A DNA stretch of 64,000 nt, taken from assembly GCA_000002435.2 (NCBI GenBank), contig CM018793.1. One strand, given 5' to 3'. Positions 15,232 to 63,977 of this stretch are shown piece by piece. The notes below the pieces were generated by a model. That model was not told where the DNA came from. It saw only the letters and a list, made by a program, of their open reading frames with translations, and made no database searches. The position numbers and the translations under genes were made by a program. The number at the start of each line of letters is the position of its first letter. Positions within the stretch are counted from its first letter, which is position 1. Source of the DNA: Giardia intestinalis. Its lineage: Eukaryota.

Positions 15232-15909
15232 TTTTTTCAATTCAAGACCGTTAATATATTTTGTGGTCTTTAACAGTCAATGTGCCCTAGAAGCCGCTAT
15301 CCCGTTAAAGCGCCTCTTTCAGTTTATAACCGAGCAAAAAGCTTCGTTCAGGCCCTCGAGTCATGTACTAATCATGTACTGTCATGTACTATTTGAGTTG
15401 TAATTCGTGCAGTCAAGAAGTCATGACCGGCTCAACCCTCTGCTGTAAATCTCGAAGCATATGTCACCGCGTCGTGTGGTCTTCTTGACCGAGCATCTAA
15501 ATATTTTCGATGACAAACCTTTAGCTAATTTATAAAGGGTTTCTGTTTAGGCAGTATCTTTGGCACGATTCTCCTCTTCGCCCTCTGGGCCCTGTCTATT
15601 TTCCCCTGTCAGAATGGTTTATGTATGGCATATCAAATTTTTGTCAAATTATATAGACCATTCAGCTTAGAATCTTGCTTAAGGAAGTGTGCTTCCGGTC
15701 TAGACGGTGAAGGTTTACTTCGCTAGTATTTACTAGTAATTTCTTTCGGTATAATCTTATGAGATCTCCTACTCTTGAAGAGTACATCTCTTACTTTCGT
15801 TCTTTGCAAAGTGCAAAAGCTTTTGCCTTTCTCTTATGACTGCAGAGGGCTGTAAGGATGGGATGGCCGAAGAGCTTTGAGGAGGTTTTTGGGGGACCTC
15901 GGGCTATGG

Positions 15910-21079: not shown

Positions 21080-21126
21080 TAAAATTAAATTGAATTCTTG
21101 CAAGCGAAAAGCGGCTCAGGCGAGCT

Positions 21127-21411
21127 ATGGCCAAGAGGACTAAAAAGGTTGGTCTCACCGGGAAGTACGGCACTCGCTATGGGAGGGCTGCCCGCAAGCA
21201 GCTCCTCAAGATAGAGACCAGCCAGAAGGCGAAGTACACATGCCCTTTCTGCGCCAAGGACAAGGTGCGTAGGACGGCCTGCGGGATCTGGACCTGCAGG
21301 TCCTGCTCCAAGACGATGGCCGGCGGCGCGTACAGCCTCCACACAGAGCCTGCCAACGCAGCCAGGGCCACGATCCGCCGCCTCCGTCTGGCCCGTGAAG
21401 ACGCACAGTAA
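21127..21411 (+). CDS. RPL37A: 60S ribosomal protein L37a (eL43)
   Basis: [19 protein letters not shown]...CPFC...CRSC C4 zinc ribbon typical of eL43; 94 aa; AGTAAAC poly(A) motif directly after the TAA stop. Confidence 0.95.
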
Positions 21412-21418
21412 AGTAAAC
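21412..21418 (+). terminator. Giardia-type polyadenylation signal AGTAAAC after RPL37A stop
   Basis: AGTRAAY consensus 1 nt after TAA. Confidence 0.6.
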
Positions 21419-21463
21419 AGAGTGGACCTGGCACTGCGGTTTGCAACTGTCTGCATAGCTCGT

Positions 21464-22033
21464 TTACTCGTCCTCGAGCCAGTTGCTGTCCCGGATGAAG
21501 GTCAACATCTCGAGCACAAGGGAGTCCGTACTGTGGATGCTTGCGTAGAGGAGGCGGTCCATGAGGGATGGAGGCTTCTCCACAAGAAGCACCTGAGACC
21601 GCCTGCCACGCTCGACCATCCTTTGGGTATACCCCTGCTTGAAGCGGTTTGTCTCTGGAGGACTCGTGTATGCCCCAGATTCTCGGAGGCGTCGTCGTGC
21701 ATCCTCGCGCTCCTGCTTGTTACGCGCCGTAGGATAGTTTCTTTTGCGCTCACTAGTCCATGTTTCACCTCCCTCTCGCTGCTGTGGGGTCAGGCGCCGC
21801 ACGGTCGCCGGTATGAGCTCGCTAGACATTTAATCCACTAATTTTGCTGCGTGCTCAAGCCTCCTGTTATACAGTTCCATCAGGGTGTCGTACTCCGAGT
21901 CTGCAAAAGGGTCGGTGTCTGGCACTGCTTGCGGGGGCTGCATCTGTGCAGGCGCAGGTGGGGCAGGTATATATTTCTGGCATCCATCGACCATGTAACA
22001 CAGCGGCTCGAAGGAGGCAGTCGGCCGATCCAT
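21464..22033 (-). CDS. hypothetical small basic protein gene interrupted by one in-frame TAA (ORFs 21833-22033, 67 aa, and 21464-21829, 121 aa, same frame)
   Basis: Upstream ORF begins at ATG 22031-22033 behind an AT-rich tract; TAA at 21830-21832 is followed directly by ATG 21827-21829 in the same frame; both parts GC3-rich and protein-like; combined 189 codons. Confidence 0.45.
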
Positions 22034-22045
22034 AGAAAATTAAAG
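22034..22045. promoter_or_regulatory. 12-bp AT-rich bidirectional promoter/initiator (agaaaattaaag) between divergent ATGs
   Basis: Minus ATG ends at 22033, plus ATG begins at 22046; only AT-rich 12-mer between them. Confidence 0.5.
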
Positions 22046-22429
22046 ATGCACGTTGAGGTTAGGGTCGGACAACCCGTGCCCGCCAGCCTCCAGAGTGCTT
22101 TCGATATTCAGATACGGCCCGCCCCAAACCTGGGCCTGGCAGTAGAGCAGGCGGCCGAGATCCAAAGCTTCCTGGAGTCTGCTCTCCCGCCGTGCGTGGC
22201 CATGGAAGAGCTGCGAGGATTCCAGACGGCGATTACCGTCTACATTATGCTCGTAGACGACGCCTCTACGGATGCGTTCGCAAACCTCCTGGGAAGCGTG
22301 CTGCGCGCACTCGAGCGGGCAGGAGTCCCCGTCCTGGGCATCCCCGTCGCGCAGCCGCTCTGGGGGTCCTTCACAGCCCTGACGCTCCCCGGCACAGACC
22401 TAGTCGTCAGTGTCCAGCGCGGGAAGTGA
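22046..22429 (+). CDS. hypothetical protein (127 aa)
   Basis: ATG behind aaaattaaagATG; protein-like composition (MHVEVRVGQPVPASLQSAFDIQIRPAPNLG...); ORF-track N-terminal extension from 21851 would overlap the divergent gene and is rejected. Confidence 0.5.
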   Translation: MHVEVRVGQPVPASLQSAFDIQIRPAPNLGLAVEQAAEIQSFLESALPPCVAMEELRGFQTAITVYIMLVDDASTDAFANLLGSVLRALERAGVPVLGIPVAQPLWGSFTALTLPGTDLVVSVQRGK

Positions 22430-22457
22430 ACTGCAGGGCTTGTTTACTGGGCGGGGC

Positions 22458-22637
22458 TTAGAGCTCGAGGGCTCCCTCCGGGCAGGCGGACACGCAGGCG
22501 CCGCACTCGACGCAGGCGTCGATGTTCGGGGTCAGGACCACCTTGGCGCCTTGGGGAAGCTCGAAGACAGAGACGGGGCACGCGTCGACGCAGGCGCCGG
22601 CGGCAGAGCACTTGGAGGCAGTGAGCTTGATGGGCAT
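22458..22637 (-). CDS. bacterial-type ferredoxin, 7Fe-like ([3Fe-4S] CxxAxxCxxxCP + [4Fe-4S] CxxCxxCxxxCP), 59 aa
   Basis: MPIKLTASKCSAAGACVDACP...CVECGACVSACPEGALEL; ATG behind AAAATG; AGTAAAC poly(A) motif (22442-22448, minus) 10 nt after the stop. Confidence 0.85.
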   Translation of the reverse strand: MPIKLTASKCSAAGACVDACPVSVFELPQGAKVVLTPNIDACVECGACVSACPEGALEL

Positions 22638-22805
22638 TTTAAAATCGCCATAAAAGTAAAAACTCCTTTTTGTGGCACCACAAATTTTAAGCACCCGGAC
22701 AGTTTGGCGATTTCGCAATATTGAGTGTATCGTGGGCCGGCTTTCATCATAGCCCATTAGGTACATAAAAACAGAGTTTTTACTTTTTGAACACGCTTTA
22801 TACTC

Positions 22806-23243
22806 ATGCGCGGAGTCCTCTCTGCTCTCCCCAGCACTTTCCACAGCCACTTTGTCCCACCATCCGTGGCACCGCTTCCTAGTGCTGGGCCTAAAAGTGC
22901 CTCGGAACCTTCTCTCCCCCTCGTTGGAGACCACCTGCATACTCTCGAACCATATGCACAGCAGCTCACAGCACAACAACAGAAGCGTCCTCGGTTCCGG
23001 CTGCTGGTGGCAAAGCTTCCCCGGGGAACGAGCCCTCTCCAGCTAACAACACCACTAGAGCAGGCCTTTCCATGTAGTGTGGATAATATTACACTACCCT
23101 CCAGTAAGCACGGAAAGCGCCCAAGGAATTTTGCCATAATCGACTTGCACTACAGAATCGATCTCTCTAAAGCTCAAGAGGTTTATAGACAGGCCAATCT
23201 AACCATTAAGATGAAGGCTGTGGACGTCAAGGAATCTGTGTAA
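22806..23243 (+). CDS. small RNA-binding protein with RRM-like domain
   Basis: RNP2-like LLVAKLP and RNP1-like RNFAIIDL in the correct spacing; the antisense ORF 22757-23137 is compositionally junk. Confidence 0.5.
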   Translation: MRGVLSALPSTFHSHFVPPSVAPLPSAGPKSASEPSLPLVGDHLHTLEPYAQQLTAQQQKRPRFRLLVAKLPRGTSPLQLTTPLEQAFPCSVDNITLPSSKHGKRPRNFAIIDLHYRIDLSKAQEVYRQANLTIKMKAVDVKESV

Positions 23244-25344: not shown

Positions 25345-27084
25345 CTAGAACTCAAAGTCGCCAAATTCATCCTCCTGTATATTTTCATAGTTAAACCCGG
25401 CAATTGGCTGAGTGTCGTTGCTAATGGTGACTCCGAGGCTTAGATCACCGTAGTTATCAAGAGTATAGTCGCCCTGCGAAGGCTGGGCTTGCTGCGCGGG
25501 CTTAGTGCGCTCCAGCACGATTCCAGAGACAAAGTCGCCACCGGCCATGAACTCCGAGTTGAGACTGGGATGTGGTCTCGTTGAGATTGCGTCATCCGTA
25601 GCAGCGTGGATGCTGCTGATGTCTTTAATATCGTTTAGCTCTGATGCGGCATTGGTTAAAATGCTTGTTGTTCCCTCTGGCATGCCAATCAGCCGTGCTG
25701 CCGCTTTCCCCGCCACCAGGGCCGAGTCCACAGCAGCGCTTTCTCCCATTGCACTGAGGTTGCTGTCGCCAGTCAAGATAGAGTCGGCACTCGGCCCAGG
25801 CTTCTGAACCATTGAACCAGGACCAAACCCAGAGTGAATCGTGCTATCTGCGGGTGTGATGGTGCTGTCGTACGCCTGCATATCTCGGCCTACTGCGTCC
25901 AGCAAGTTTAGTGTGGCTTGGCGGGTTGGTCCGCCCGTTGATTCGGTGATCGCGCTGCTTAACGACTCAGTATAGCCAGAGCCCGCCTTACTGAGGGTAT
26001 CGTCCTGCTGGAGTTTTGCTAACGACTTTATCCCTCTACTAGAAGAGCTGCCAGATGCAGATACATCGCTGTCCTCAACTAGAAGGGCGCTTTGAAGATA
26101 TGCATGACTGCTGTTGTCATACATACACGGATCAGGAACAACGAGCTCGGTCACAAGATGCTCGCTGTGTGCAGCTGACTCTGCATTCTCCTGCGCCTTC
26201 GTAGGAGACATAGTCAGATCTCTATTAAGCTTCCCCTGGATCTCAGCGGCTCTACGGGCATGCGCAGCTGTGTCGGGCGAAAGCATGGAATTTCGCGCCA
26301 AACTTCTATCTGCATATTTGAACGAGAAGTCAGTCATCCTGCTGGGGCTTTGCCTACTGCTTGAGGTTTCGTCTGGACCAAGGGAAACCCCCGGGGCCAT
26401 GCTGGCGTTCGAGATGGTGAGATTGGCTTCCTGAGACTGATCATCTCCAAATGGATTATCTTGCTTGAGAGTGAACGCAGACCCCTTTACCGGCTGAGTC
26501 GGGATAATTTTCTCACAGTCATCGTGGCGCCTAGGTGAGGCGGTGTTTCGGGCGGGGCTCGTGTACTCAGAAATAGGCTCCATGCTCATATCGGAGAATG
26601 CAGCACCAATATCGGAATGGCCTGGAGAGTGCGTGCCGGGAGAAGACATAAATTCATAACTGTCCACCTCTGGCAAATCACTAAACGGTCTTCCAGATTC
26701 TAATTCAAGGACCTTCAAGGTGTTCACCATTCCTTTGTCTGTGAGCCACTTCACCAGATATGCAAGGACCTTGAGATCCTCGTCACAAATAAAGTTCGCT
26801 GCCTGTAGCAGGGGATCTACCTCGTTCAGTTCCCGGTGATGAAGGATGCCCCAAACCTGTGCGTACATGAAGGCCTTAACCTTAGCTAGCACCCCAGCAG
26901 TGTCTAGCGCTGCAAAAACGCCGCGCTTAAGATCCGGGGACTCATCAAGACTCATTGGCTTTTTGGTCCTTGGGTTTTTGATTTCTTCAGGTTCTTCGGT
27001 TCCTTCGCTTAATGAGAGTGAGTGATCAACCCATCTGGTATGCGCGGTATTACAAGAGAACATGCAGAGAGAAATTCGCTCCAT
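25345..27084 (-). CDS. Ser-rich hypothetical protein (start 27084 or, more likely, internal ATG 26955)
   Basis: ATG at 27084 would overlap the upstream Rad51-like CDS by 76 bp; the ATG at 26953-26955 (MSLDESPDLKRG...) lies 54 bp after that gene's stop; ordered N-terminal domain then a long S/T/P-rich region. Confidence 0.6.
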   Translation of the reverse strand: MERISLCMFSCNTAHTRWVDHSLSLSEGTEEPEEIKNPRTKKPMSLDESPDLKRGVFAALDTAGVLAKVKAFMYAQVWGILHHRELNEVDPLLQAANFICDEDLKVLAYLVKWLTDKGMVNTLKVLELESGRPFSDLPEVDSYEFMSSPGTHSPGHSDIGAAFSDMSMEPISEYTSPARNTASPRRHDDCEKIIPTQPVKGSAFTLKQDNPFGDDQSQEANLTISNASMAPGVSLGPDETSSSRQSPSRMTDFSFKYADRSLARNSMLSPDTAAHARRAAEIQGKLNRDLTMSPTKAQENAESAAHSEHLVTELVVPDPCMYDNSSHAYLQSALLVEDSDVSASGSSSSRGIKSLAKLQQDDTLSKAGSGYTESLSSAITESTGGPTRQATLNLLDAVGRDMQAYDSTITPADSTIHSGFGPGSMVQKPGPSADSILTGDSNLSAMGESAAVDSALVAGKAAARLIGMPEGTTSILTNAASELNDIKDISSIHAATDDAISTRPHPSLNSEFMAGGDFVSGIVLERTKPAQQAQPSQGDYTLDNYGDLSLGVTISNDTQPIAGFNYENIQEDEFGDFEF

Positions 27085-28307
27085 AGAAGATGCAAGATTG
27101 TCTCCTTCTGGGTCAAGGCCAAGACGATCCTGGTAGAAACGTGAGAGCCCCAGCTGATCCCCAGGCTGGGTGTAACCAGTCTATTAGAGGACATTACCAC
27201 GTCGCGTGAAAACGTGCGGTCACTTTTGTAAGATATTTGCACGGTTTCTGGGAAGAGTAGAGAAGTGAACGGTACCACCATAGACTCCGAAATGAGAGTG
27301 GACTGAGAATCGTTAGGGTCACCATGGATTAGTAGCTGATTGCTAACTCTATCTTCTCCACAATCACTGACACCCGGGATTACTGGCGTATAGACATAGA
27401 GCTGATCAGTTGGAAGAGTGTTAGTAGGAAGCCGGGGAAGAGCATTGGGAATAGATTGCCCCGGGAACTGATGTCTTCTAGAATGCTGCTGTGCAGATGA
27501 GGCTAATTGAGGAGTTGCAATGTAATCTCCCACGTGATTAGTCAACAGCACGGCGAGGTTCTTCAAACACGCAATGTTGAGCAAAGCCTGTCCCATCTCA
27601 TACCCCGGATTATTGAGCTGAGACTCACTGGAGTTTGGCTTAGTGTAGAGAATGCGCAGGAAGCCAATACTGTCTACGCAGATAAGCTTCAATGCAGGAC
27701 ACTGTCTGCACAACTCCCAGACTTGGCCCGATGATTCAAAGAGCTTTACAAGGCCAGTAGGGGATAGTTCACGCAAGAAGTACAGTCTCTTCAGAACCAT
27801 CGTTGTATTCACTTGAGTGTCAGTGAGAAAGGGGGAAAGATAGGTCAGGAGATCAACGAGGGTGCTGAGGACGTCTTCTACCGATGTTACTATTAAGGCT
27901 ATGTAATGCTCCGTCGTCAAGAGCACCACGGAGATGACGTACAGCAGTATGCGCGTCTTACCCGTGCCAGATTCCCCTGCAATCTCAGTTATGTGCTGCT
28001 CTCGTATAACGTTTGCCAAGACCAGATCAAATGGTGACATAGTCTTTAGGTGCTTAAAGTTGGGAATAAACAAACTAGACTCCGGCCTTAACCCTGATCC
28101 TGCCGAGGCGAACAATCTAACAATGCCGCACGCATCACAGATTTTAGACTTAATTTCTTCAATCTCTCGGACTGATTTATTCTGTTTGACGGCCAATTCA
28201 TAGCTGTCAGAATTTAGAAAGTTTGCAATTGTGAGACCACCAAGCTTTGTCAAGAAAGATGCGCGTAGGGCCTCGCCAAAATCTAATTCATATTTGTGCC
28301 TATTCAT
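27009..28307 (-). CDS. RecA/Rad51-family paralog-like P-loop ATPase (XRCC3/Rad51C-like architecture)
   Basis: N-terminal HhH-like segment, ITEIAGESGTGKT Walker A, LICVDSIGF Walker B, LLTNHV (cf. INQVT) strand; ORF-track start 28322 is TTG, real ATG 28305-28307 behind TTATTAAAATG. Confidence 0.7.
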   Translation of the reverse strand: MNRHKYELDFGEALRASFLTKLGGLTIANFLNSDSYELAVKQNKSVREIEEIKSKICDACGIVRLFASAGSGLRPESSLFIPNFKHLKTMSPFDLVLANVIREQHITEIAGESGTGKTRILLYVISVVLLTTEHYIALIVTSVEDVLSTLVDLLTYLSPFLTDTQVNTTMVLKRLYFLRELSPTGLVKLFESSGQVWELCRQCPALKLICVDSIGFLRILYTKPNSSESQLNNPGYEMGQALLNIACLKNLAVLLTNHVGDYIATPQLASSAQQHSRRHQFPGQSIPNALPRLPTNTLPTDQLYVYTPVIPGVSDCGEDRVSNQLLIHGDPNDSQSTLISESMVVPFTSLLFPETVQISYKSDRTFSRDVVMSSNRLVTPSLGISWGSHVSTRIVLALTQKETILHLLWSEFLSACSLVIPRIPDGLITHSH

Positions 28308-28377
28308 TTTAATAAATGACAAGCTTTGTGTCGTCCTTTTAAGAATTAAAAAACACCCTCCCAGCGCTTACCCAGAT

Positions 28378-54038: not shown

Positions 54039-56812
54039 TAGTCCATATTCGTCAGTACATCCTCCAGGGCATTGATGAGTTGCCGTGCACCAAGGCTTGC
54101 CAGGCCAAGTGGGGTTCTGTGAGTTTCCATGTATGATATCGCCTCATTCACCATCTTCTCTATCTGCTCACTAGATTGGCACAGCGTCGTTCCTAGCAAG
54201 GCGTGATGTTGTATTAACGGGTTTGTTAGCTTAGTCTCGCTATAGTTAACGACTGTCTGCCTGTGTACCTGCTGAGTCGTGGAGACGTCCAGAGAGCCGG
54301 GATTCAGAGACACCTCTTTGGCAGTTGAGTCTCTTGCACTGTACCCGACCCCTGGTGCAAAGATCAACGAGCTCAACGGCATAGCGCTTTCTGTGTTATA
54401 ATTGATAAGCCCCTCCTGCACCACAAACTTATAGATCTTATGGATTGTGTCAACTGGTACAGGAAGGATGTCATACAGTACAAAACATTTGAACGGACGC
54501 TTCTGCGTGGTTAGATAGTAATGTATTATCGTATTTCTAAACAGGATATAGTCTTGTTCTCGTAACTTCCCATTAGACAGCTCCGATGCGAAGTAGCCCT
54601 TTTCTAGCGGATACATGATAGTTACATCTTCGAACCACTTGTTCGGTGTCACCTGGAACAAGCTTGAATAGCTAGAATGAGTACGGGGGGCTGGGCTTTT
54701 AAAGTCAAGCATGCACTCTATCTCTCCATCCAGTACCTGTCTGGCCACAATAAGCCCTGACCCGGTGTGTCCATACGCCCTACCGTCATCGGCAACCCCC
54801 GTGAATTGCGGACCAAACAAGAGGGTGTCTAGGACAGGTGGGTACTTATATTTATGGCACTTAAACTCGTCCATTATCTGTGAAACAGGGACCAGATTTC
54901 CCTGTTCATCGGGTATCTTCAAATATTTGCGCAACTCTAGCTGATTATCACTACACCGAATTATGGATAACAGTATCTTTTCGGTATCACTGTCAAAATT
55001 ACTATTATAAATATAGCTAAATGCTGTCAATAGAAAGTGCTCTTTCAAGACCTCACACTTTCGTCCCAAGAAGCGCGGGTTGCTCAAAGTCATAGTGCAC
55101 TGAGCATCGTCTAGTGCTGCCTTTGTCTGATGATCTATTAACTGGCTCAGCACTGGCGAGTCCTCCTTAGCACCTGCCAAGAGAGCATGTGGCAGGTGTC
55201 CGTTCTGCCACTTAGATGGGTCTGAGGTTGGACTGAACAGAATATCGACAACATCCTTGGTCGAAAGGACACCGTGAAATGATAACATCCTATGTTCGTT
55301 TGGAGCATCTCTAAAAGATAATGTGCCAAAAGAGAGTGTGACATTTATTTTTTCATAGTTATATGTCTCTGCATCTCTCTCGTTTATGCCTGATTGACTG
55401 TCAGCTGGACTAAGGGTATATCCTATGTTTTTCTTTAAAAGATTCAAGGAGGACTCGTACTTCTCAGGATGGGCTCGCATGTTAGTGTAGAAGTAACTAA
55501 GATTGGGGCTCGTAAACTCAATATCTCGAAAAACAAATCTACATCCTCCACAGTGGCATTCGTAGTATTTGCAAGAATTATCTGAGGGCTGTGATAAGGG
55601 CGCAGCCGCCACATTCGCTGACTCCTCGAGGGCAGCTATGGGAACGTAGGTTATGTTTTGCTCGGTATAGTCTGATAGCTCACATAGCTCATTGTAGTTT
55701 AACGAATCCAAAAGCCACTGGAGCGACAGAAAGACAACTTCAAGACACACAGACCTGGGTGAAACAGATTCATGGGTGTCTGATTGTGCGGAGGCATCTG
55801 AAGAGAAGGTGTCCAGAGCATCTATAAAGTTCTGTGCATCAATGGAGTTGTCAAAAGAGAGTAGGGCGCGGGACCCTAGAAGGGGGACTACCTCACTTGC
55901 AGTAGGCTTTACCCCCTTGGCCTCTGCAACAAGCTGCTTCTGTTCCACTGTGTCGTACGAAGGAGGAGACCGTAACATGTGCACCAAGTACTGGTCTTCT
56001 ACAAATTCCAATATGCGGAAGGAGATTCGTGAAATGGCGAGATTGTCCTGCAATCGTCCTCGTCTAGGCTGAACAATTACTTTTCGCAGCTTATCGTCGC
56101 CACTCGGAAACCATGGAGCACACAACACAAGTGGGACAGCTGAGGTAAATACTTTGCCGAGCTGGTTGCAGGAACTAAGTGAGTCATCATCCTGCTTTTG
56201 TGTCGTATCCCGATCCTCATCGTGATAGTAAATTTCGTCAGCGTGAACTGAAAAGGAATGCTTGCCTACTACTGCTACTGAAGATGGCGCAAAATAGGAC
56301 GAGATTTTGAACTTGTTACACGCCTCCCCAAGCAATCTTTTTAACTCTACTGGCATGTGAGGATCAAAGATCAAGATATATTGCTTGCCAATCCTCTCTT
56401 CATTAATAGCTGCATAACACTTCGCATAGAGCGATAGGAACTCGTCAGTTGCCATGGAGGAGATGTGCTGGTAAACAGCGTCATACCTGAGCATGATCGA
56501 TGCCTCCGATGAATGAGAGATAATCATCCGCAGAATAAGGTGAAGCGTCTTATTGCGTGTTTTAGTATTGCTTAGGAGATAATGGGGGATCTTTGTTTGA
56601 GGCTGCACCCCTGCCTTCAACCCAAGAAGGGTGTCTGCACGCTCAAAAAAACACGAAAAGATACCTGAGAGCTTGTTGGAACAGTAAGCGTCCGTAAGTT
56701 TCCGACCGTCTTCAAAGAATGAGTGCGGAAGTTGCTGAATAAATGAATGAATATATGGCTGTAATAGCGTCTCCAGATAATCTTGAGACCAAGTGGCCTT
56801 GAGAAAAACCAT
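54035..56812 (-). CDS. large hypothetical protein (925 aa)
   Basis: ATG 56810-56812 behind AAATTAAAATAAATTATCATG; no motif recognised. Confidence 0.65.
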   Translation of the reverse strand: MVFLKATWSQDYLETLLQPYIHSFIQQLPHSFFEDGRKLTDAYCSNKLSGIFSCFFERADTLLGLKAGVQPQTKIPHYLLSNTKTRNKTLHLILRMIISHSSEASIMLRYDAVYQHISSMATDEFLSLYAKCYAAINEERIGKQYILIFDPHMPVELKRLLGEACNKFKISSYFAPSSVAVVGKHSFSVHADEIYYHDEDRDTTQKQDDDSLSSCNQLGKVFTSAVPLVLCAPWFPSGDDKLRKVIVQPRRGRLQDNLAISRISFRILEFVEDQYLVHMLRSPPSYDTVEQKQLVAEAKGVKPTASEVVPLLGSRALLSFDNSIDAQNFIDALDTFSSDASAQSDTHESVSPRSVCLEVVFLSLQWLLDSLNYNELCELSDYTEQNITYVPIAALEESANVAAAPLSQPSDNSCKYYECHCGGCRFVFRDIEFTSPNLSYFYTNMRAHPEKYESSLNLLKKNIGYTLSPADSQSGINERDAETYNYEKINVTLSFGTLSFRDAPNEHRMLSFHGVLSTKDVVDILFSPTSDPSKWQNGHLPHALLAGAKEDSPVLSQLIDHQTKAALDDAQCTMTLSNPRFLGRKCEVLKEHFLLTAFSYIYNSNFDSDTEKILLSIIRCSDNQLELRKYLKIPDEQGNLVPVSQIMDEFKCHKYKYPPVLDTLLFGPQFTGVADDGRAYGHTGSGLIVARQVLDGEIECMLDFKSPAPRTHSSYSSLFQVTPNKWFEDVTIMYPLEKGYFASELSNGKLREQDYILFRNTIIHYYLTTQKRPFKCFVLYDILPVPVDTIHKIYKFVVQEGLINYNTESAMPLSSLIFAPGVGYSARDSTAKEVSLNPGSLDVSTTQQVHRQTVVNYSETKLTNPLIQHHALLGTTLCQSSEQIEKMVNEAISYMETHRTPLGLASLGARQLINALEDVLTNMDY

Positions 56813-57051
56813 GATAATTTATTTTAATTTCAGTAAGCCAACGGTGATTGCTACATGCCCCTCTGTTGCACAAATGCAGGCCGAAACAGTGTTCCTCGGG
56901 CAATGGACACGAAGAGCCCTTTTAATTTTAAAGTAATCTTCTGTGAGCACTCTGAATCATAGTCAAAGTGTGCTGGCATACAGATCCTACGAGATAAAGT
57001 GTGTTGAGAACCAATATTATTGATATTAGATTACTTAACTTAAAAAGCCGA

Positions 57052-57411
57052 ATGGAGGCCTTTGTTGATGTTCGAATGCTCGGTTTGTGGGCGTCGTCTA
57101 AGGCGGCTACATGTACTAACGAGATCTCAGAGTGCCAGGATGTCATGCACTTCCTGCTGGCAGCAGAGGAGCTACTGCTATCAGGAAAGAGTGAGCGGAA
57201 GGTTCTCGTGCACTTAGGTTGCGACGTCTACGAGCCTGGTCTTTGCGACTTAAATGGGTGGATAAAGATCCACCTCGGCGCAGGGATTGTGGTTGAGATG
57301 ACCTATGCAGAGGCCAAGAAGTATTTGACACGGCGGATTCGTGATCTTACCGATGAGATAGACGAACTTCATAAGACCATGGCTGATTGCGCAGCTTTAT
57401 GTTCTAATTGA
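57052..57411 (+). CDS. prefoldin alpha-type subunit-like protein (119 aa)
   Basis: ORF-track start 57001 is GTG; ATG 57052 behind TTAAAAAGCCGAATG; helix-hairpin-helix pattern with central VLVHLGCDVY...IHLGAGIVVEMTYAEAKKYLTRRIRDLTDEIDEL resembling the PFD5/UXT beta-hairpin and C-terminal helix. Confidence 0.5.
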   Translation: MEAFVDVRMLGLWASSKAATCTNEISECQDVMHFLLAAEELLLSGKSERKVLVHLGCDVYEPGLCDLNGWIKIHLGAGIVVEMTYAEAKKYLTRRIRDLTDEIDELHKTMADCAALCSN

Positions 57412-58044
57412 GACCTATCCTGTCTTATTCACTGTCTACACCTCAAGATAGCCACTTATCATTCTAGCAGCTAGAGTTCTCAACTCTCCAGTGTTATGTC
57501 CTTGTTGGATCGCCCATAACTATCTGGTGCGTTGTACCGTAGTTTTCGATGCACGTATGCAATGCAGTATCCGATTGTATCTCTATTCGGCAAACGTGAG
57601 ATGTACTTGGATTTACCCTTGAGGCAGAGTATTCATCTTATTAGACGCAACAGTGCTGCCGACCAAGCCACTGCTAGGCAGAGCACACGGCCTGTATCTG
57701 CTCATCTCGTGCTCTAGCCAGCCACCCTGCGTGAGCATCTGGAGACATGCCTGGACATATGTGTGGTATTCTGCGGTGTGTACGGTCCCGTGTCCACGCA
57801 GTAGGCCAGCCAGAGAGCGTGTGCAGGCACGCCATGTGGCACCACGTCCTTTGTGGAGCGCTGGAGGAATACACAGGTGAGGGTCTACCATCAAGATGCG
57901 GACACGTTGCTTCCTGACATGGAAGGTCAATGAGGCTATCCAGATGGCCCAGCTATGGTAGAAGGCTAGCAGATGTGATCGTATTGGCCATCAGCACTGT
58001 CACTAACACCAACATGCATGACTAATGGACCTAGCAGGGCCGCA

Positions 58045-59610
58045 ATGTTGCTACTAGTTCTCTGCTTTTTGATGAGCGCCCTCGCCGCGCAACGCACTAA
58101 ACAACCCACATCCGACTGCGGAGTCGCAAACTGCGCCCAGTGCAACGCGGACGGCAGGACGTGTGATCAGTGCAGCGAGGGGTACAACCTCAACCAGGAG
58201 AAGACCCAGTGCACCAAGGCGTGCGCGGTCGCAAACTGCGCCCAGTGCAACGCGGACGGCAGGACGTGTGATCAGTGCAGCGAGGGGTACAACCTCAACC
58301 AGGAGAAGACCCAGTGCACCAAGGCGTGCGCGGTCGCAAACTGCGCCCAGTGCAACGCGGACGGCAGGACGTGTGATCAGTGCAGCGAGGGGTACAACCT
58401 CAACCAGGAGAAGACCCAGTGCACCAAGGCGTGCGCGGTCGCAAACTGCGCCCAGTGCAACGCGGACGGCAGGACGTGTGATCAGTGCAGCGAGGGGTAC
58501 AACCTCAACCAGGAGAAGACCCAGTGCACCAAGGCGTGCGCGGTCGCAAACTGCGCCCAGTGCAACGCGGACGGCAGGACGTGTGATCAGTGCAGCGAGG
58601 GGTACAACCTCAACCAGGAGAAGACCCAGTGCACCAAGAACCCAGAAGCGCGATGCAATACTCCCAACTGTAAGACCTGTGACAGCCCCAAAACAGACAG
58701 TGAAATCTGCACTGAATGTAATAATGGCAACTACCTCACCCCGACAAAGCAGTGCACGCAGAGCTGCGGAACAATAGGAAGCTACTACAACGGAGACAAA
58801 GTGTGCGAGCCCTGTGATCCTAGCTGTGCTGCGTGCATCACAAAGGGACCAGCGAAGTGCACGCTGTGTCCTCCCGGGAAGAGGCTCCAGTACACAGATG
58901 AAGGAGCCACTCAGAACGGCGGATCCTGCGTAGATGAGTGCAAGCCTGAAGGAGGAGCTAGCGGATGCGAGACCTGCGGAGCCACCATCGGAGGGACAAA
59001 GTATTGCTCGAAGTGCAGCACATCCACGGAGGTCCCCGTCAACGGGGTCTGTACAGCAGACAATGCCCGCGCAGCTGCGTGCAAGGTGAAAGATGGCAAG
59101 GGAGGGTGCACTACGTGTGAGAGTGGATACTTCCTCCAAGACGGCGGTTGCTACAAACTCGGTAGACAGCCCGGTGAGCAGATATGCACAGCAGCCAGTA
59201 GCGCTGGTAAGTGCGAGACGTGCGCCAATAGTCTTCAGCCCAATAATGGAGCATGCCCCTCGTGTCACTCGACCTGTAAGACATGTCGTGATGCTAATTC
59301 TGCAAATGCTTGTACAACGTGTGCAGCTGGGTACTATATGGTCGGATCAGCAGCTGGACCATGCACTTCGTGTGACAGCAACAGTGGAAGTGTCAAGGGA
59401 GTTGCTGGCTGCATGAGCTGCGCTCCTCCATCGTCTAGTACTGGCTCCGTCCTTTGCTACCTCATGAACGGTGACAGTGCCGGCGGAAGCACGAACAAGA
59501 GCGGCCTTAGCACAGGCGCCATCGCAGGCATTTCTGTCGCAGTCATCGTTGTCGTGGGGGGTCTTGTCGGCTTCCTCTGCTGGTGGTTCCTCTGCAGGGG
59601 CAAGGCGTAG
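58045..59610 (+). CDS. VSP: variant-specific surface protein (VSP)
   Basis: Signal peptide MLLLVLCFLMSALAA, about 11% Cys in CXXC motifs, GGCY motif, C-terminal TM plus invariant CRGKA tail; AGTAAAC poly(A) motif at 59625-59631; an upstream in-frame ATG at 58018 is possible. Confidence 0.9.
   Translation: MLLLVLCFLMSALAAQRTKQPTSDCGVANCAQCNADGRTCDQCSEGYNLNQEKTQCTKACAVANCAQCNADGRTCDQCSEGYNLNQEKTQCTKACAVANCAQCNADGRTCDQCSEGYNLNQEKTQCTKACAVANCAQCNADGRTCDQCSEGYNLNQEKTQCTKACAVANCAQCNADGRTCDQCSEGYNLNQEKTQCTKNPEARCNTPNCKTCDSPKTDSEICTECNNGNYLTPTKQCTQSCGTIGSYYNGDKVCEPCDPSCAACITKGPAKCTLCPPGKRLQYTDEGATQNGGSCVDECKPEGGASGCETCGATIGGTKYCSKCSTSTEVPVNGVCTADNARAAACKVKDGKGGCTTCESGYFLQDGGCYKLGRQPGEQICTAASSAGKCETCANSLQPNNGACPSCHSTCKTCRDANSANACTTCAAGYYMVGSAAGPCTSCDSNSGSVKGVAGCMSCAPPSSSTGSVLCYLMNGDSAGGSTNKSGLSTGAIAGISVAVIVVVGGLVGFLCWWFLCRGKA
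58114..58638 (+). repeat. 5 x 105-bp perfect or near-perfect tandem repeat inside the VSP CDS (35-aa unit ACAVANCAQCNADGRTCDQCSEGYNLNQEKTQCTK)
   Basis: Copies at 58114, 58219, 58324, 58429, 58534; copies 2-5 identical at nucleotide level, copy 1 differs only in its first ~10 nt. Confidence 0.9.
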
Positions 59611-59624
59611 ATGTGTACTTAGGT

Positions 59625-59631
59625 AGTAAAC
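59625..59631 (+). terminator. Giardia-type polyadenylation signal AGTAAAC after VSP stop
   Basis: AGTRAAY 15 nt after TAG. Confidence 0.6.
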
Positions 59632-60664
59632 GCGTCATTGTGTGTGGCTTATATAAATGTGCTGCTGGGGCTATCTGAGCGTGGCCCAGAGGTCGTGCGG
59701 GTGAGCCCGCTCCTTCCTGGCCAGTCCAGGAACGATGGCTGGTTTTGGATGATATAATAGGGATCTCCCTTCACTTGTATACCAGGAGTCTTTTGCGTCC
59801 CTCAGTTGTTCCGCAGAGGTGTGCTCAGTTCGAGTGTGCGCGTCGCTCAGCCCAGGATTCAACTTACTTGTCCATCTGCATTGTCCACCATTGGTGCCAC
59901 TTCTTGGTCTACCGCTCTGATGCCGGAGGGTCCCAGTAGTTGATGACCCTGGACTGACGCCTCGACAGACCGAAGCATCAGCCCAAGTGTGCTGTGCAGT
60001 GCAGATGGACCAGCCCACACGTCACTGAGCCAGACGCACTGCACAGGGTGAGCGTCGACACGGTCTCGTACTGGATGACGGACCACCTGCAAGAGCGCAC
60101 TGCGATCCATGAGCAGAGGACCATACTTCTCCCCCGATACCAACGCATAGGAGCTGTCCGCCGGCATCCACGAACGCGTACTATGACTCCAAGATAGAGG
60201 CGCACGGGGAGCATACCCTCCGATCATACTCGGAACCGATGATCGCTTCATGGGGAGACAAAGAGGTGCCCCGAGGAACGGGATAGGCACCCGAGGTCGT
60301 GGCGTGCGATCTTCGTCACGGAGCACCAGGGCCACGTGGAGGCCAGGCTGCTGTGACCGACGGTAGCCCCGAGACAACAGGTGCTCACTAGATATCAGAC
60401 GATGGTTGACCCCGACGGGCCAGAGGATGGGAGGAATCTAGAGGCACCGCGAGGAGCGGCAGGTCCCGGGGGAGACAGGATATAGGAGTTCTCCCGCCGG
60501 GATCGAGGGCATCCGACTCTCGGATTTCTGATCTCAGCTATTGTATGAGCGAGAGGCTTGCCCAGGGCGGCAATGGCTCGCATGAAAAGACCACTCCGGT
60601 AGCAGGCGACAACCCCGCCTCATTAAAATTTACTCTTCCCTAACCTCGTCTCTCTAGATATCTG

Positions 60665-61219
60665 ATGGTAGGCCCATTTGACAGTCTTGCAGATGCATTA
60701 ATACGACAGATGAACCTCCAGTTGGAGGACATGCGGCACAATGGAGAATACTCTCTCCTTCTAAGGATCATTCGGGGCCAGACCTCATTAACAGACAGAG
60801 TTGCCAAGAACCAAGAAGCACTATCTGTTGCCCGGAAGAAAGCAGGGGCAATTTTGACTGTATCACGACCTAAGCCACAAACTGACCCTGGATTTATTCA
60901 GAGAACGCAAAAAGCCCTTGAAGAAACACAGGACGCTATCCAGGAGACTCAGCGAAATATAGAGCGTCTCGAAGCCCAGCTAAAAGATGTTACTGCCAAG
61001 ACTGCAAACAAGGATGAATTACGACGTGCTGCATTGACTCTAGCAGACAGAGAAAATGCGGGTAGGGAGGAGCTCGTTGAACTTTATCACAGCATATCGG
61101 GAGTACACTGGGATCAGCCCGACTTGGGATATGTGCTTAGCGAGGAGATTGCAAAACCCATCCGTTTCAGCTCCTGTGTCGATGCCACCAACCAGCTCTG
61201 GGAAATGATTAACATGTAG
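60665..61219 (+). CDS. hypothetical coiled-coil protein (184 aa)
   Basis: Central heptad region (QKALEETQDAIQETQRNIERLEAQLKDVTAK) plus small C-terminal globular part; family uncertain. Confidence 0.45.
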   Translation: MVGPFDSLADALIRQMNLQLEDMRHNGEYSLLLRIIRGQTSLTDRVAKNQEALSVARKKAGAILTVSRPKPQTDPGFIQRTQKALEETQDAIQETQRNIERLEAQLKDVTAKTANKDELRRAALTLADRENAGREELVELYHSISGVHWDQPDLGYVLSEEIAKPIRFSSCVDATNQLWEMINM

Positions 61220-63383: not shown

Positions 63384-63977
63384 TTACTTTACAGGGCCAC
63401 TTGCATCATCCTTGTTGCTCATTTTCTTTTCAAAAAGTGCATATAAATTGCTTATGCTTTCAATCTGTTTCATCAATATAGAATTTCTAATAAGAATGTT
63501 ATCATATCTTGATAACTCGGCTGTAAGCTTATTAAAGACCATCACATCCTCTGGTATTAGTGGATCCGGTGATATCAGTGAAGCAGATTTATCGGCGGTC
63601 TCTGCCTCTACCTCCAGGGTGTCATGTAAAAGAGCTACAGAACCAGTGGCTCTTGAGCAGTTTTCAGCGTTCTGGATCGTATCCTTTGGCGGCTTCCTGC
63701 ACAGCTGATAGCTAGATTTGCATGGCTTACAGCAGCACATAAAGCACCTGACACACAGTGGGCAAAGCCTCACAAAAAGGGGGACAAAAATGATGAGTAG
63801 GATGATTGACATGATAAGCAAAAGAATTCGCCCAACCCTCGTCGTAAAAAACAGCCTTACAATTTCAAAGAAGCCCTTCCCCTTCAGCTTTTCAAAGAAC
63901 TCTATTACGTCCCGGAAAACTGTGTTTTTCCACGACGGAACTTCAGGATCAGCAAAAACAAAGTCGTCGAGACACAT
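63384..63977 (-). CDS. hypothetical membrane protein with Cys-rich juxtamembrane segment (197 aa)
   Basis: TM helix ILLLIMSIILLIIFVPLFV followed by CPLCVRCFMCCCKPC; N-terminus close to the window edge. Confidence 0.4.
   Translation of the reverse strand: MCLDDFVFADPEVPSWKNTVFRDVIEFFEKLKGKGFFEIVRLFFTTRVGRILLLIMSIILLIIFVPLFVRLCPLCVRCFMCCCKPCKSSYQLCRKPPKDTIQNAENCSRATGSVALLHDTLEVEAETADKSASLISPDPLIPEDVMVFNKLTAELSRYDNILIRNSILMKQIESISNLYALFEKKMSNKDDASGPVK

Follow-up and report, generated by a model that had tools for sequence, protein, structure and literature searches.

The 633-bp gap upstream of a Giardia VSP gene is non-coding and probably a composite of three parts

The VSP gene examined here raises the question of what occupies the long stretch of DNA in front of it; in particular, whether the stretch has a job of its own or is the flank that such genes usually have. 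We analysed a window of 64,000 nucleotides from Giardia intestinalis (GCA_000002435.2, contig CM018793.1), in which 633 bp (57412–58044) lie between the stop codon of a prefoldin-like gene and the VSP ATG at 58045. The prefoldin-like gene (57052–57411, plus strand; 119 aa) bounds the gap on the left, and Pfam PF02996 is recorded for exactly this protein. Other gaps between open reading frames (ORFs) of the window are mostly 5–282 bp in length. An earlier note, made from the sequence alone, had given 12–130 bp for upstream regions elsewhere, which holds for most gaps but not for several of 236–282 bp or for one of 678 bp at 15232–15909. This second long spacer has a GC content of 0.42, contains many AT-rich 10-mers and no ORF of 50 codons or more, and is flanked by two minus-strand genes. 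An apparent gap of 1293 bp elsewhere in the window was discarded as an artefact of ORF picking, as it is filled by a 437-codon ORF (27009–28322, minus strand). That ORF matches AAA_25 weakly, lacks an ATG close to its 5′ end and shares 76 nt with the start of a neighbouring 579-aa gene; a re-examination of its start codon or gene structure may be warranted.

The GC content of the gap is 0.515 overall, compared with 0.481 for the window, and is unevenly distributed: it is 0.43 in 57412–57650 (239 bp) and 0.566 (around 0.57) in 57651–58044, the right two thirds, with 0.542 in the last 227 bp. The gap had been described as GC-rich, which is true of its VSP-side part and not of the left 239 bp, and the idea of a single uniform GC-rich block has to be given up in favour of three parts that differ in origin. 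The length of the gap and the GC content of its right part are true outliers within the window; its ORFs and a short motif near the ATG are not. The larger claim, that the VSP gene sits within atypical sequence, stood: a gene-poor island of approximately 3 kb (57641–60627) has a GC content of 0.58, compared with 0.48 and 0.46 on either side, and lies between core genes, with a 184-aa gene (60665–61219, plus strand; identified as an ORF) as its right bound. Another GC-rich stretch of the window, 21085–22940 (ORF GC of 0.55–0.64), contains an ORF with a 4Fe–4S ferredoxin domain at 22458–22940 and three small ORFs without a significant Pfam match, one of which has a sub-threshold NUFIP1 match.

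We consider it likely that the 633 bp are the extended non-coding region that usually precedes a Giardia VSP gene, in this case a composite of three parts. The first (57412–57640, 229 bp) would be the remnant of the ordinary spacer that follows the prefoldin gene, the second (57641–57817, 177 bp) the edge of the GC-rich and fast-changing VSP island, and the third (57818–58044) a VSP-linked flank that was copied or moved with the gene. Comparisons with other isolates and assemblages establish the three boundaries of this composite and the sharing of its flank.

The gene itself (58045–59610, plus strand) encodes 521 aa from 58045 and is annotated as 530 aa from 58018. The protein matches XP_001705986.1 of Giardia lamblia ATCC 50803 at 100% identity, which identifies the window as strain WB (assemblage A1), and PF03302 is recorded for the identical protein P0005. 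It has the marks of VSP-gene membership: a C-terminal transmembrane domain that ends in CRGKA (...GGLVGFLCWWFLCRGKA), a Cys-rich CXXC ectodomain (24 CXXC motifs, 13.6% Cys and one GGCY), the PyAATGTT element and an extended polyadenylation signal. This signal, ACTTAGGTAGTAAACGC (59617–59633, plus strand), begins 6 nt past the stop codon; the published motif, ACTTAGGTAGT[AG]AA[CT]GC, occurs 0–15 bp after VSP stop codons (PMC3091692). Inside the gene, a perfect 105-bp tandem repeat (35 aa) of repeat family D1 is present in 4.9 copies (58123–58638, plus strand; Tandem Repeats Finder, 100% matches, score 1032). Exact look-ups of the VSP, in both its 530-aa and its 521-aa form, and of the WB paralogue P0011 returned no contig record. 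The exact 530-aa protein is known only from the old WB annotation and is on no contig, so that other assemblies may contain a different number of copies of the repeat.

The part of the gap that adjoins the gene, 57818–58044 (plus strand, 227 bp), accompanies a related VSP at another locus as well. In isolate DH (A2, GCA_000498715.1), the corresponding sequence (L029, 818–1044) is 96.0% identical (218/227), compared with 80.8% for 169 bases of the adjoining coding DNA and 42.9%, a random level, for the 100 nt to the left of 57818. The homology starts exactly at 57818, and the neighbouring genes in DH differ from those of the window. Only one protein was returned when the first 70 residues of the VSP were used as the query, a truncated DH VSP of 110 aa. 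This protein (L029 1018–1350, AHGT01000077.1) joins the N and C termini of a VSP related to the one in the window, with the middle missing. More than 20 independent WB-type Logan contigs that approach from the left stop at 57851, around one k-mer (31 nt) past 57818, the behaviour expected of a de Bruijn assembler that meets sequence with a further copy in another context. From these alignments and breaks, we conclude that 57818–58044 is shared between loci together with the 5′ end of the VSP, and the flank would have been copied or moved along with the gene. The contig breaks and the DH copy together suggest that the flank is also repeated within WB, although allelic variation, which is higher near VSPs (PMC7000408), could be an alternative cause of the breaks. 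The difference between 96% identity in the flank and 81% in the coding DNA could mean that the flank is under selection, or has undergone gene conversion, and is not neutral filler. This contrast and the sharp boundary at 57818 make the flank a defined fragment for tests of VSP promoters or switching.

The closest full-length homologues of the VSP are two VSPs of P15 (assemblage E), which share approximately 65% protein identity with it and lie in other genomic contexts. Upstream of one of them (P0006; L028 5938–6052), a proximal core that is conserved between assemblages A and E (57984–58044, plus strand) aligns at 76.5% by blastn and 73% in a global alignment; upstream of the other (P0007), only the last 23–28 nt match. 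The upstream sequence common to this VSP subgroup thus amounts to 227 bp in DH, around 60 bp for P0006 and around 23–28 bp for P0007. The earlier note had looked to conservation with other VSP flanks as a touchstone, and it is present, over 227 bp at 96% with DH and over approximately 60 bp at 73–77% with P15. All four loci (WB, DH and two of P15) can be aligned over roughly the final 28 nt, with the conserved block CTAA(T/C)GG.C..AGCAGG.CC.CAATGTTG, and the CAATGTT at 58043–58049 (plus strand), a VSP initiator or Kozak-like element, is invariant among them. PyAATGTT is present in 135/136 WB VSPs (bioRxiv 10.1101/2022.03.07.483299). In P15, the upstream in-frame ATG that corresponds to 58018 is followed by a stop (ATG TCG TGA), which makes 58045, the start assumed in the earlier note, most likely the true VSP start in place of the annotated 58018.

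The working promoter would probably consist of the last few tens of bases and the CAATGTT at the ATG. We place it there because this part is conserved across assemblages and because Giardia promoters are short; conservation and published work on other VSPs point to promoter activity of the proximal region. The remainder of the gap would most likely be tolerated filler, with a GC content that comes from its origin in VSP- or retroelement-type sequence and not from a job of its own, and this remainder may also be the site of the histone acetylation that has been reported upstream of active vsp genes.

Within the proximal core lies the motif cactaacacc (58002–58011, plus strand), which had been noted as standing next to the VSP ATG. 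It is present, 7 nt 5′ of the annotated in-frame ATG at 58018 but 34 nt 5′ of the probable ATG at 58045. The hexamer ACTAAC occurs 22 times in the window, compared with 23.3 expected. At 58002, the fused branch-point and splice-site sequence CTRACACACAG is not matched, even if one mismatch is tolerated (the local sequence is CACTAACACCAACATG), and the 3′ motif of cis-spliced introns, [AC]CT[AG]AC[AC]CACAG, is absent at cactaacacc. From the would-be branch A at 58006, the first AG (58031–58032) is 25 nt downstream. The aligned position in P15 reads CACTGGAGCC, so that the motif is not conserved there. Judged by these counts and alignments, the ACTAAC motif is a chance occurrence and no intron signal, as the earlier note had itself suspected. 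An exact match to the Giardia branch-point and 3′ splice-site consensus, CTGACACACAG, is found at 63748–63758 (plus strand), antisense inside a 795-aa gene that runs off the window; this is also probably chance.

A different answer is that the spacer is a working regulatory module: a source of antisense, promoter-associated or small RNA, or a passage for prefoldin read-through into the VSP, which would feed RNAi-type silencing or switching. Among the contigs from public runs, six short ones, of different sequencing runs, begin at 56782–56813 and extend without interruption across the prefoldin gene as far as 57851, which is 440 nt or more beyond its stop codon; a literature search on six of the run accessions found no paper. 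To the right of the island, short contigs start at 60633–60639, just past AT-rich 10-mers at 60620–60625. These short Logan contigs look like transcript assemblies, so 57412–57851 is probably transcribed, from one strand or the other. The plus strand of the 633 bp that follow the prefoldin stop does not contain AGTRAA, the polyadenylation signal. AT-rich 10-mers of the initiator-like type, several of which are present in ordinary promoter gaps, are also missing from it. The lack of the 10-mer argues weakly against generic promoters firing inside the gap and, together with the missing AGTRAA, would fit prefoldin read-through better than promoters inside the gap. A regulatory role is also consistent with the higher identity of the flank (96%) than of the adjoining coding DNA (81%) and with reports of acetylation upstream of active vsp genes, which is linked to activation, and of control by RNAi or miRNA (PMC8957917). 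Against such a role, Rfam 15 yielded no match at the gathering threshold in the whole window, nor at E ≤ 10 in 57300–58200; a tRNA scan found none; and the gap folds no more stably than shuffled sequences on either strand (z = +1.2 and +0.4). Pervasive sterile transcription is normal in Giardia (PMC3792122), such that transcription alone does not amount to function, and the conservation shrinks to approximately 28–60 nt between assemblages. We regard a regulatory module as unlikely, and return to the composite and its two left-hand parts.

The first part, 57412–57640 (plus strand, GC of around 0.43), has the character of an ordinary locus-specific spacer or prefoldin 3′ region. WB-type Logan contigs that encode exactly this prefoldin match it at 100%; an A2-like contig (L023), which is 98.6% identical to the window over 10.7 kb, matches it at 97.4%, with 6 mismatches in 229. 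In two distant lineages (L024 and L025), it cannot be aligned past approximately 60 nt. A candidate element around 190–230 nt past the prefoldin stop that seemed conserved across assemblages (CGTGAGAT...GGATT..., MAFFT) was rejected as chance (blastn E = 0.064 in a tiny search space). From 57641, identity to L023 drops to approximately 69% (12 mismatches in 39 nt), after which L023 ends. This jump in divergence coincides with the rise in GC content, and together they mark the second part, 57641–57817 (plus strand), as the left edge of the GC-rich VSP island. In lineages with prefoldin orthologues of 74–81% identity (L024 and L025–L027), the assemblies break 199–260 nt past the prefoldin stop, and this is the case for every Giardia lineage sampled; in each of these lineages, the site after prefoldin may carry repeats or be variable.

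At the other end of the island, downstream of the VSP, is a GC-rich repeated element, here called block X (59951–60627, plus strand). It is homologous to P15 sequence (L028 5042–5871; 62% over 832 alignment columns, E = 6 × 10−52) that lies directly upstream of the homologous VSP and beside a decayed ORF. This ORF has C2H2 fingers (Pfam E = 9 × 10−6) and a weak match to the reverse transcriptase of LINE-1 ORF2 (E = 4 × 10−4 to 1 × 10−3). Block X itself reaches only a tblastn E of 0.002 against an adjoining 198-aa ORF of P15, which has no Pfam or PDB match. On this indirect basis, block X is probably part of a retroelement relic. WB-type Logan contigs that come from the right begin at 60495/60496, as expected at the edge of a repeat. 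The same element thus occurs on opposite sides of related VSPs, downstream in the window and upstream in P15. Position 60627 is the exact end of the homology to P15. In one contig (L020, from SRR2642194), which is 99.8% identical beyond this point, the sequence left of 60627 is unrelated, with positions 1–15 of the contig lying opposite 60612–60626 of the window; these 15 nt have no source within the window, and the contig may derive from an isolate or molecule without the island, or be a chimera.

Part of the gap, chiefly 57641–57817, might likewise be a decayed mobile element or other gene fragment, such as a relic of GilD, a type of non-LTR retrotransposon. Its GC content and ORF-rich texture resemble those of block X, with its homology to sequence beside the decayed reverse-transcriptase gene of P15; this segment contains, at 57736, the break of a WB-type contig (L022); and retrotransposon relics have been reported around VSPs (bioRxiv 10.1101/2022.03.07.483299, PMC7000408, PMC3091692). 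The segment has no match, however, among the VSP flanks, VSP proteins and P15 retroelement sequence compared. At neither the nucleotide nor the translated level did we find similarity to the P15 retroelement locus, block X or the rest of the window, the sequences covered by the comparison; the best tblastx E values are only 0.005–0.015 over 19–51 residues, and Pfam gave a single insignificant match. Repeats common to the blocks upstream and downstream of the VSP, or to these and the rest of the window, do not exceed chance. An imperfect 17-nt inverted repeat (57650–57666 and 57984–58000) has an estimated 0.2 or so occurrences by chance. A relic in this part of the gap seems decidedly doubtful.

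A further proposal combines two of the above observations: the 227-bp flank would be a selected, portable cis-regulatory cassette, and prefoldin read-through would supply constitutive VSP RNA to RNAi-type silencing. The cassette is suggested by the contrast between a flank that has stayed at 96% identity and adjoining coding DNA that has fallen to 81%, and read-through into the VSP would be possible given that no plus-strand AGTRAA follows the prefoldin gene within the gap. We judge this combination quite improbable; if true, the locus would be a natural test case for VSP transcription without the usual type of promoter. To our knowledge, Giardia VSPs have no known pairing element, intron promoter or regulatory ncRNA, and none was found at the VSP locus of the window.

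The gap (57412–58044) is non-coding, in agreement with the earlier note. Overlapping ORFs of 43–105 codons are present on both strands (the note had reported those of 60–105 codons), and their overlap in the GC-rich part is expected where stop codons are rare. The longest, of 105 codons, is equalled in 11% of composition-matched first-order Markov simulations. When codon usage was scored as log-odds, with 17 long genes of the window as the training set, the ORFs of the gap reached −0.155 to +0.029 bits per codon, compared with 0.07–0.21 for eight real genes, small ones included. The 105-aa product has no homologue among 1.84 billion representative proteins (HMMER), its sole Pfam match is insignificant (AHH, E = 0.16) and an exact-protein look-up returned no record. 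A blastx comparison with 124 proteins, of which 119 belong to the VSP family, revealed no VSP remnant in either flank of the VSP (best E = 0.27–1.0). That the gap conceals a small protein-coding gene missed by annotation, or a VSP pseudogene, as its four ORFs of at least 60 codons (1.4 expected; reached in 3% of simulations, P ≈ 0.03) and the many such small ORFs in the first WB annotation (PMC7000408) might suggest, is therefore scarcely credible in view of the non-coding codon usage, the missing homologues, the lack of anything similar among the VSP-family proteins, the expected overlap of ORFs where stops are scarce and the fact that the Logan-contig gene caller predicted no gene in its portion of the gap. 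For annotation, the overlapping small ORFs at 57491–57930 should not be called genes.

The composite reading agrees with what has been published on VSP loci, namely that their upstream regions are long, GC-richer and gene-poor (PMC2996952, PMC7000408, PMC3091692, bioRxiv 10.1101/2022.03.07.483299). VSP intergenic regions have a median length of 1280 nt, compared with 79 nt genome-wide, and the 2 kb upstream of VSPs have a GC content of 53.9%, compared with 45.2% for ordinary genes, the values given for VSPs running from 50.6% to 53.9%; groups of VSPs have upstream sequence in common, and retrotransposon relics flank VSPs (bioRxiv 10.1101/2022.03.07.483299). Adam et al. (2010) described vsps with near-identical upstream and divergent coding regions (PMC2996952), and Xu et al. 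(2020) found the surroundings of VSPs to be gene-poor and more variable (PMC7000408). In the P15 genome, Jerlstrom-Hultqvist et al. (2010) reported GC-rich islands of VSP and reverse-transcriptase (RT) genes at synteny breaks, and few conserved upstream motifs (PMC3091692).

Three known systems offer comparisons. By analogy only, the 5′ flank recalls the ups regions of Plasmodium falciparum var genes, in which grouped 5′ flanks are copied with variant-antigen genes (PMC8957917); there is no homology, however, and control in Giardia is thought to be largely post-transcriptional. The GC-rich VSP/RT/HCMP islands (PMC3091692, PMC7000408) are closer: the 3-kb gene-poor island has a GC content of 0.58 between core genes, is tied to sequence related to a decayed reverse-transcriptase locus and has related VSPs in different contexts in DH and P15, and the assemblies of every lineage break after prefoldin. 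It differs from those islands in that we infer its insertion at this site, the interval from the prefoldin gene to the 184-aa gene being seen in assemblage A only. Closest are the extended vsp upstream regions (PMC2996952, bioRxiv 10.1101/2022.03.07.483299), with which the gap shares its length (a gene-free spacer of 633 bp, set against the 79-nt median), its raised GC content (0.515 overall, though not raised in the left 239 bp), the absence of a TATA-like or AT-rich element, the CAATGTT at the start and an upstream sequence that is common to a VSP subgroup while the coding sequence diverges. The gap is shorter than the published median of 1280 nt, and its left third is the ordinary spacer of a neighbouring housekeeping gene. 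The finding fits published descriptions of VSPs, is in that sense already known and matters little beyond the locus: the stretch differs in no respect of kind from those regions and provides a real but ordinary example of what has been published for the VSP loci of Giardia.
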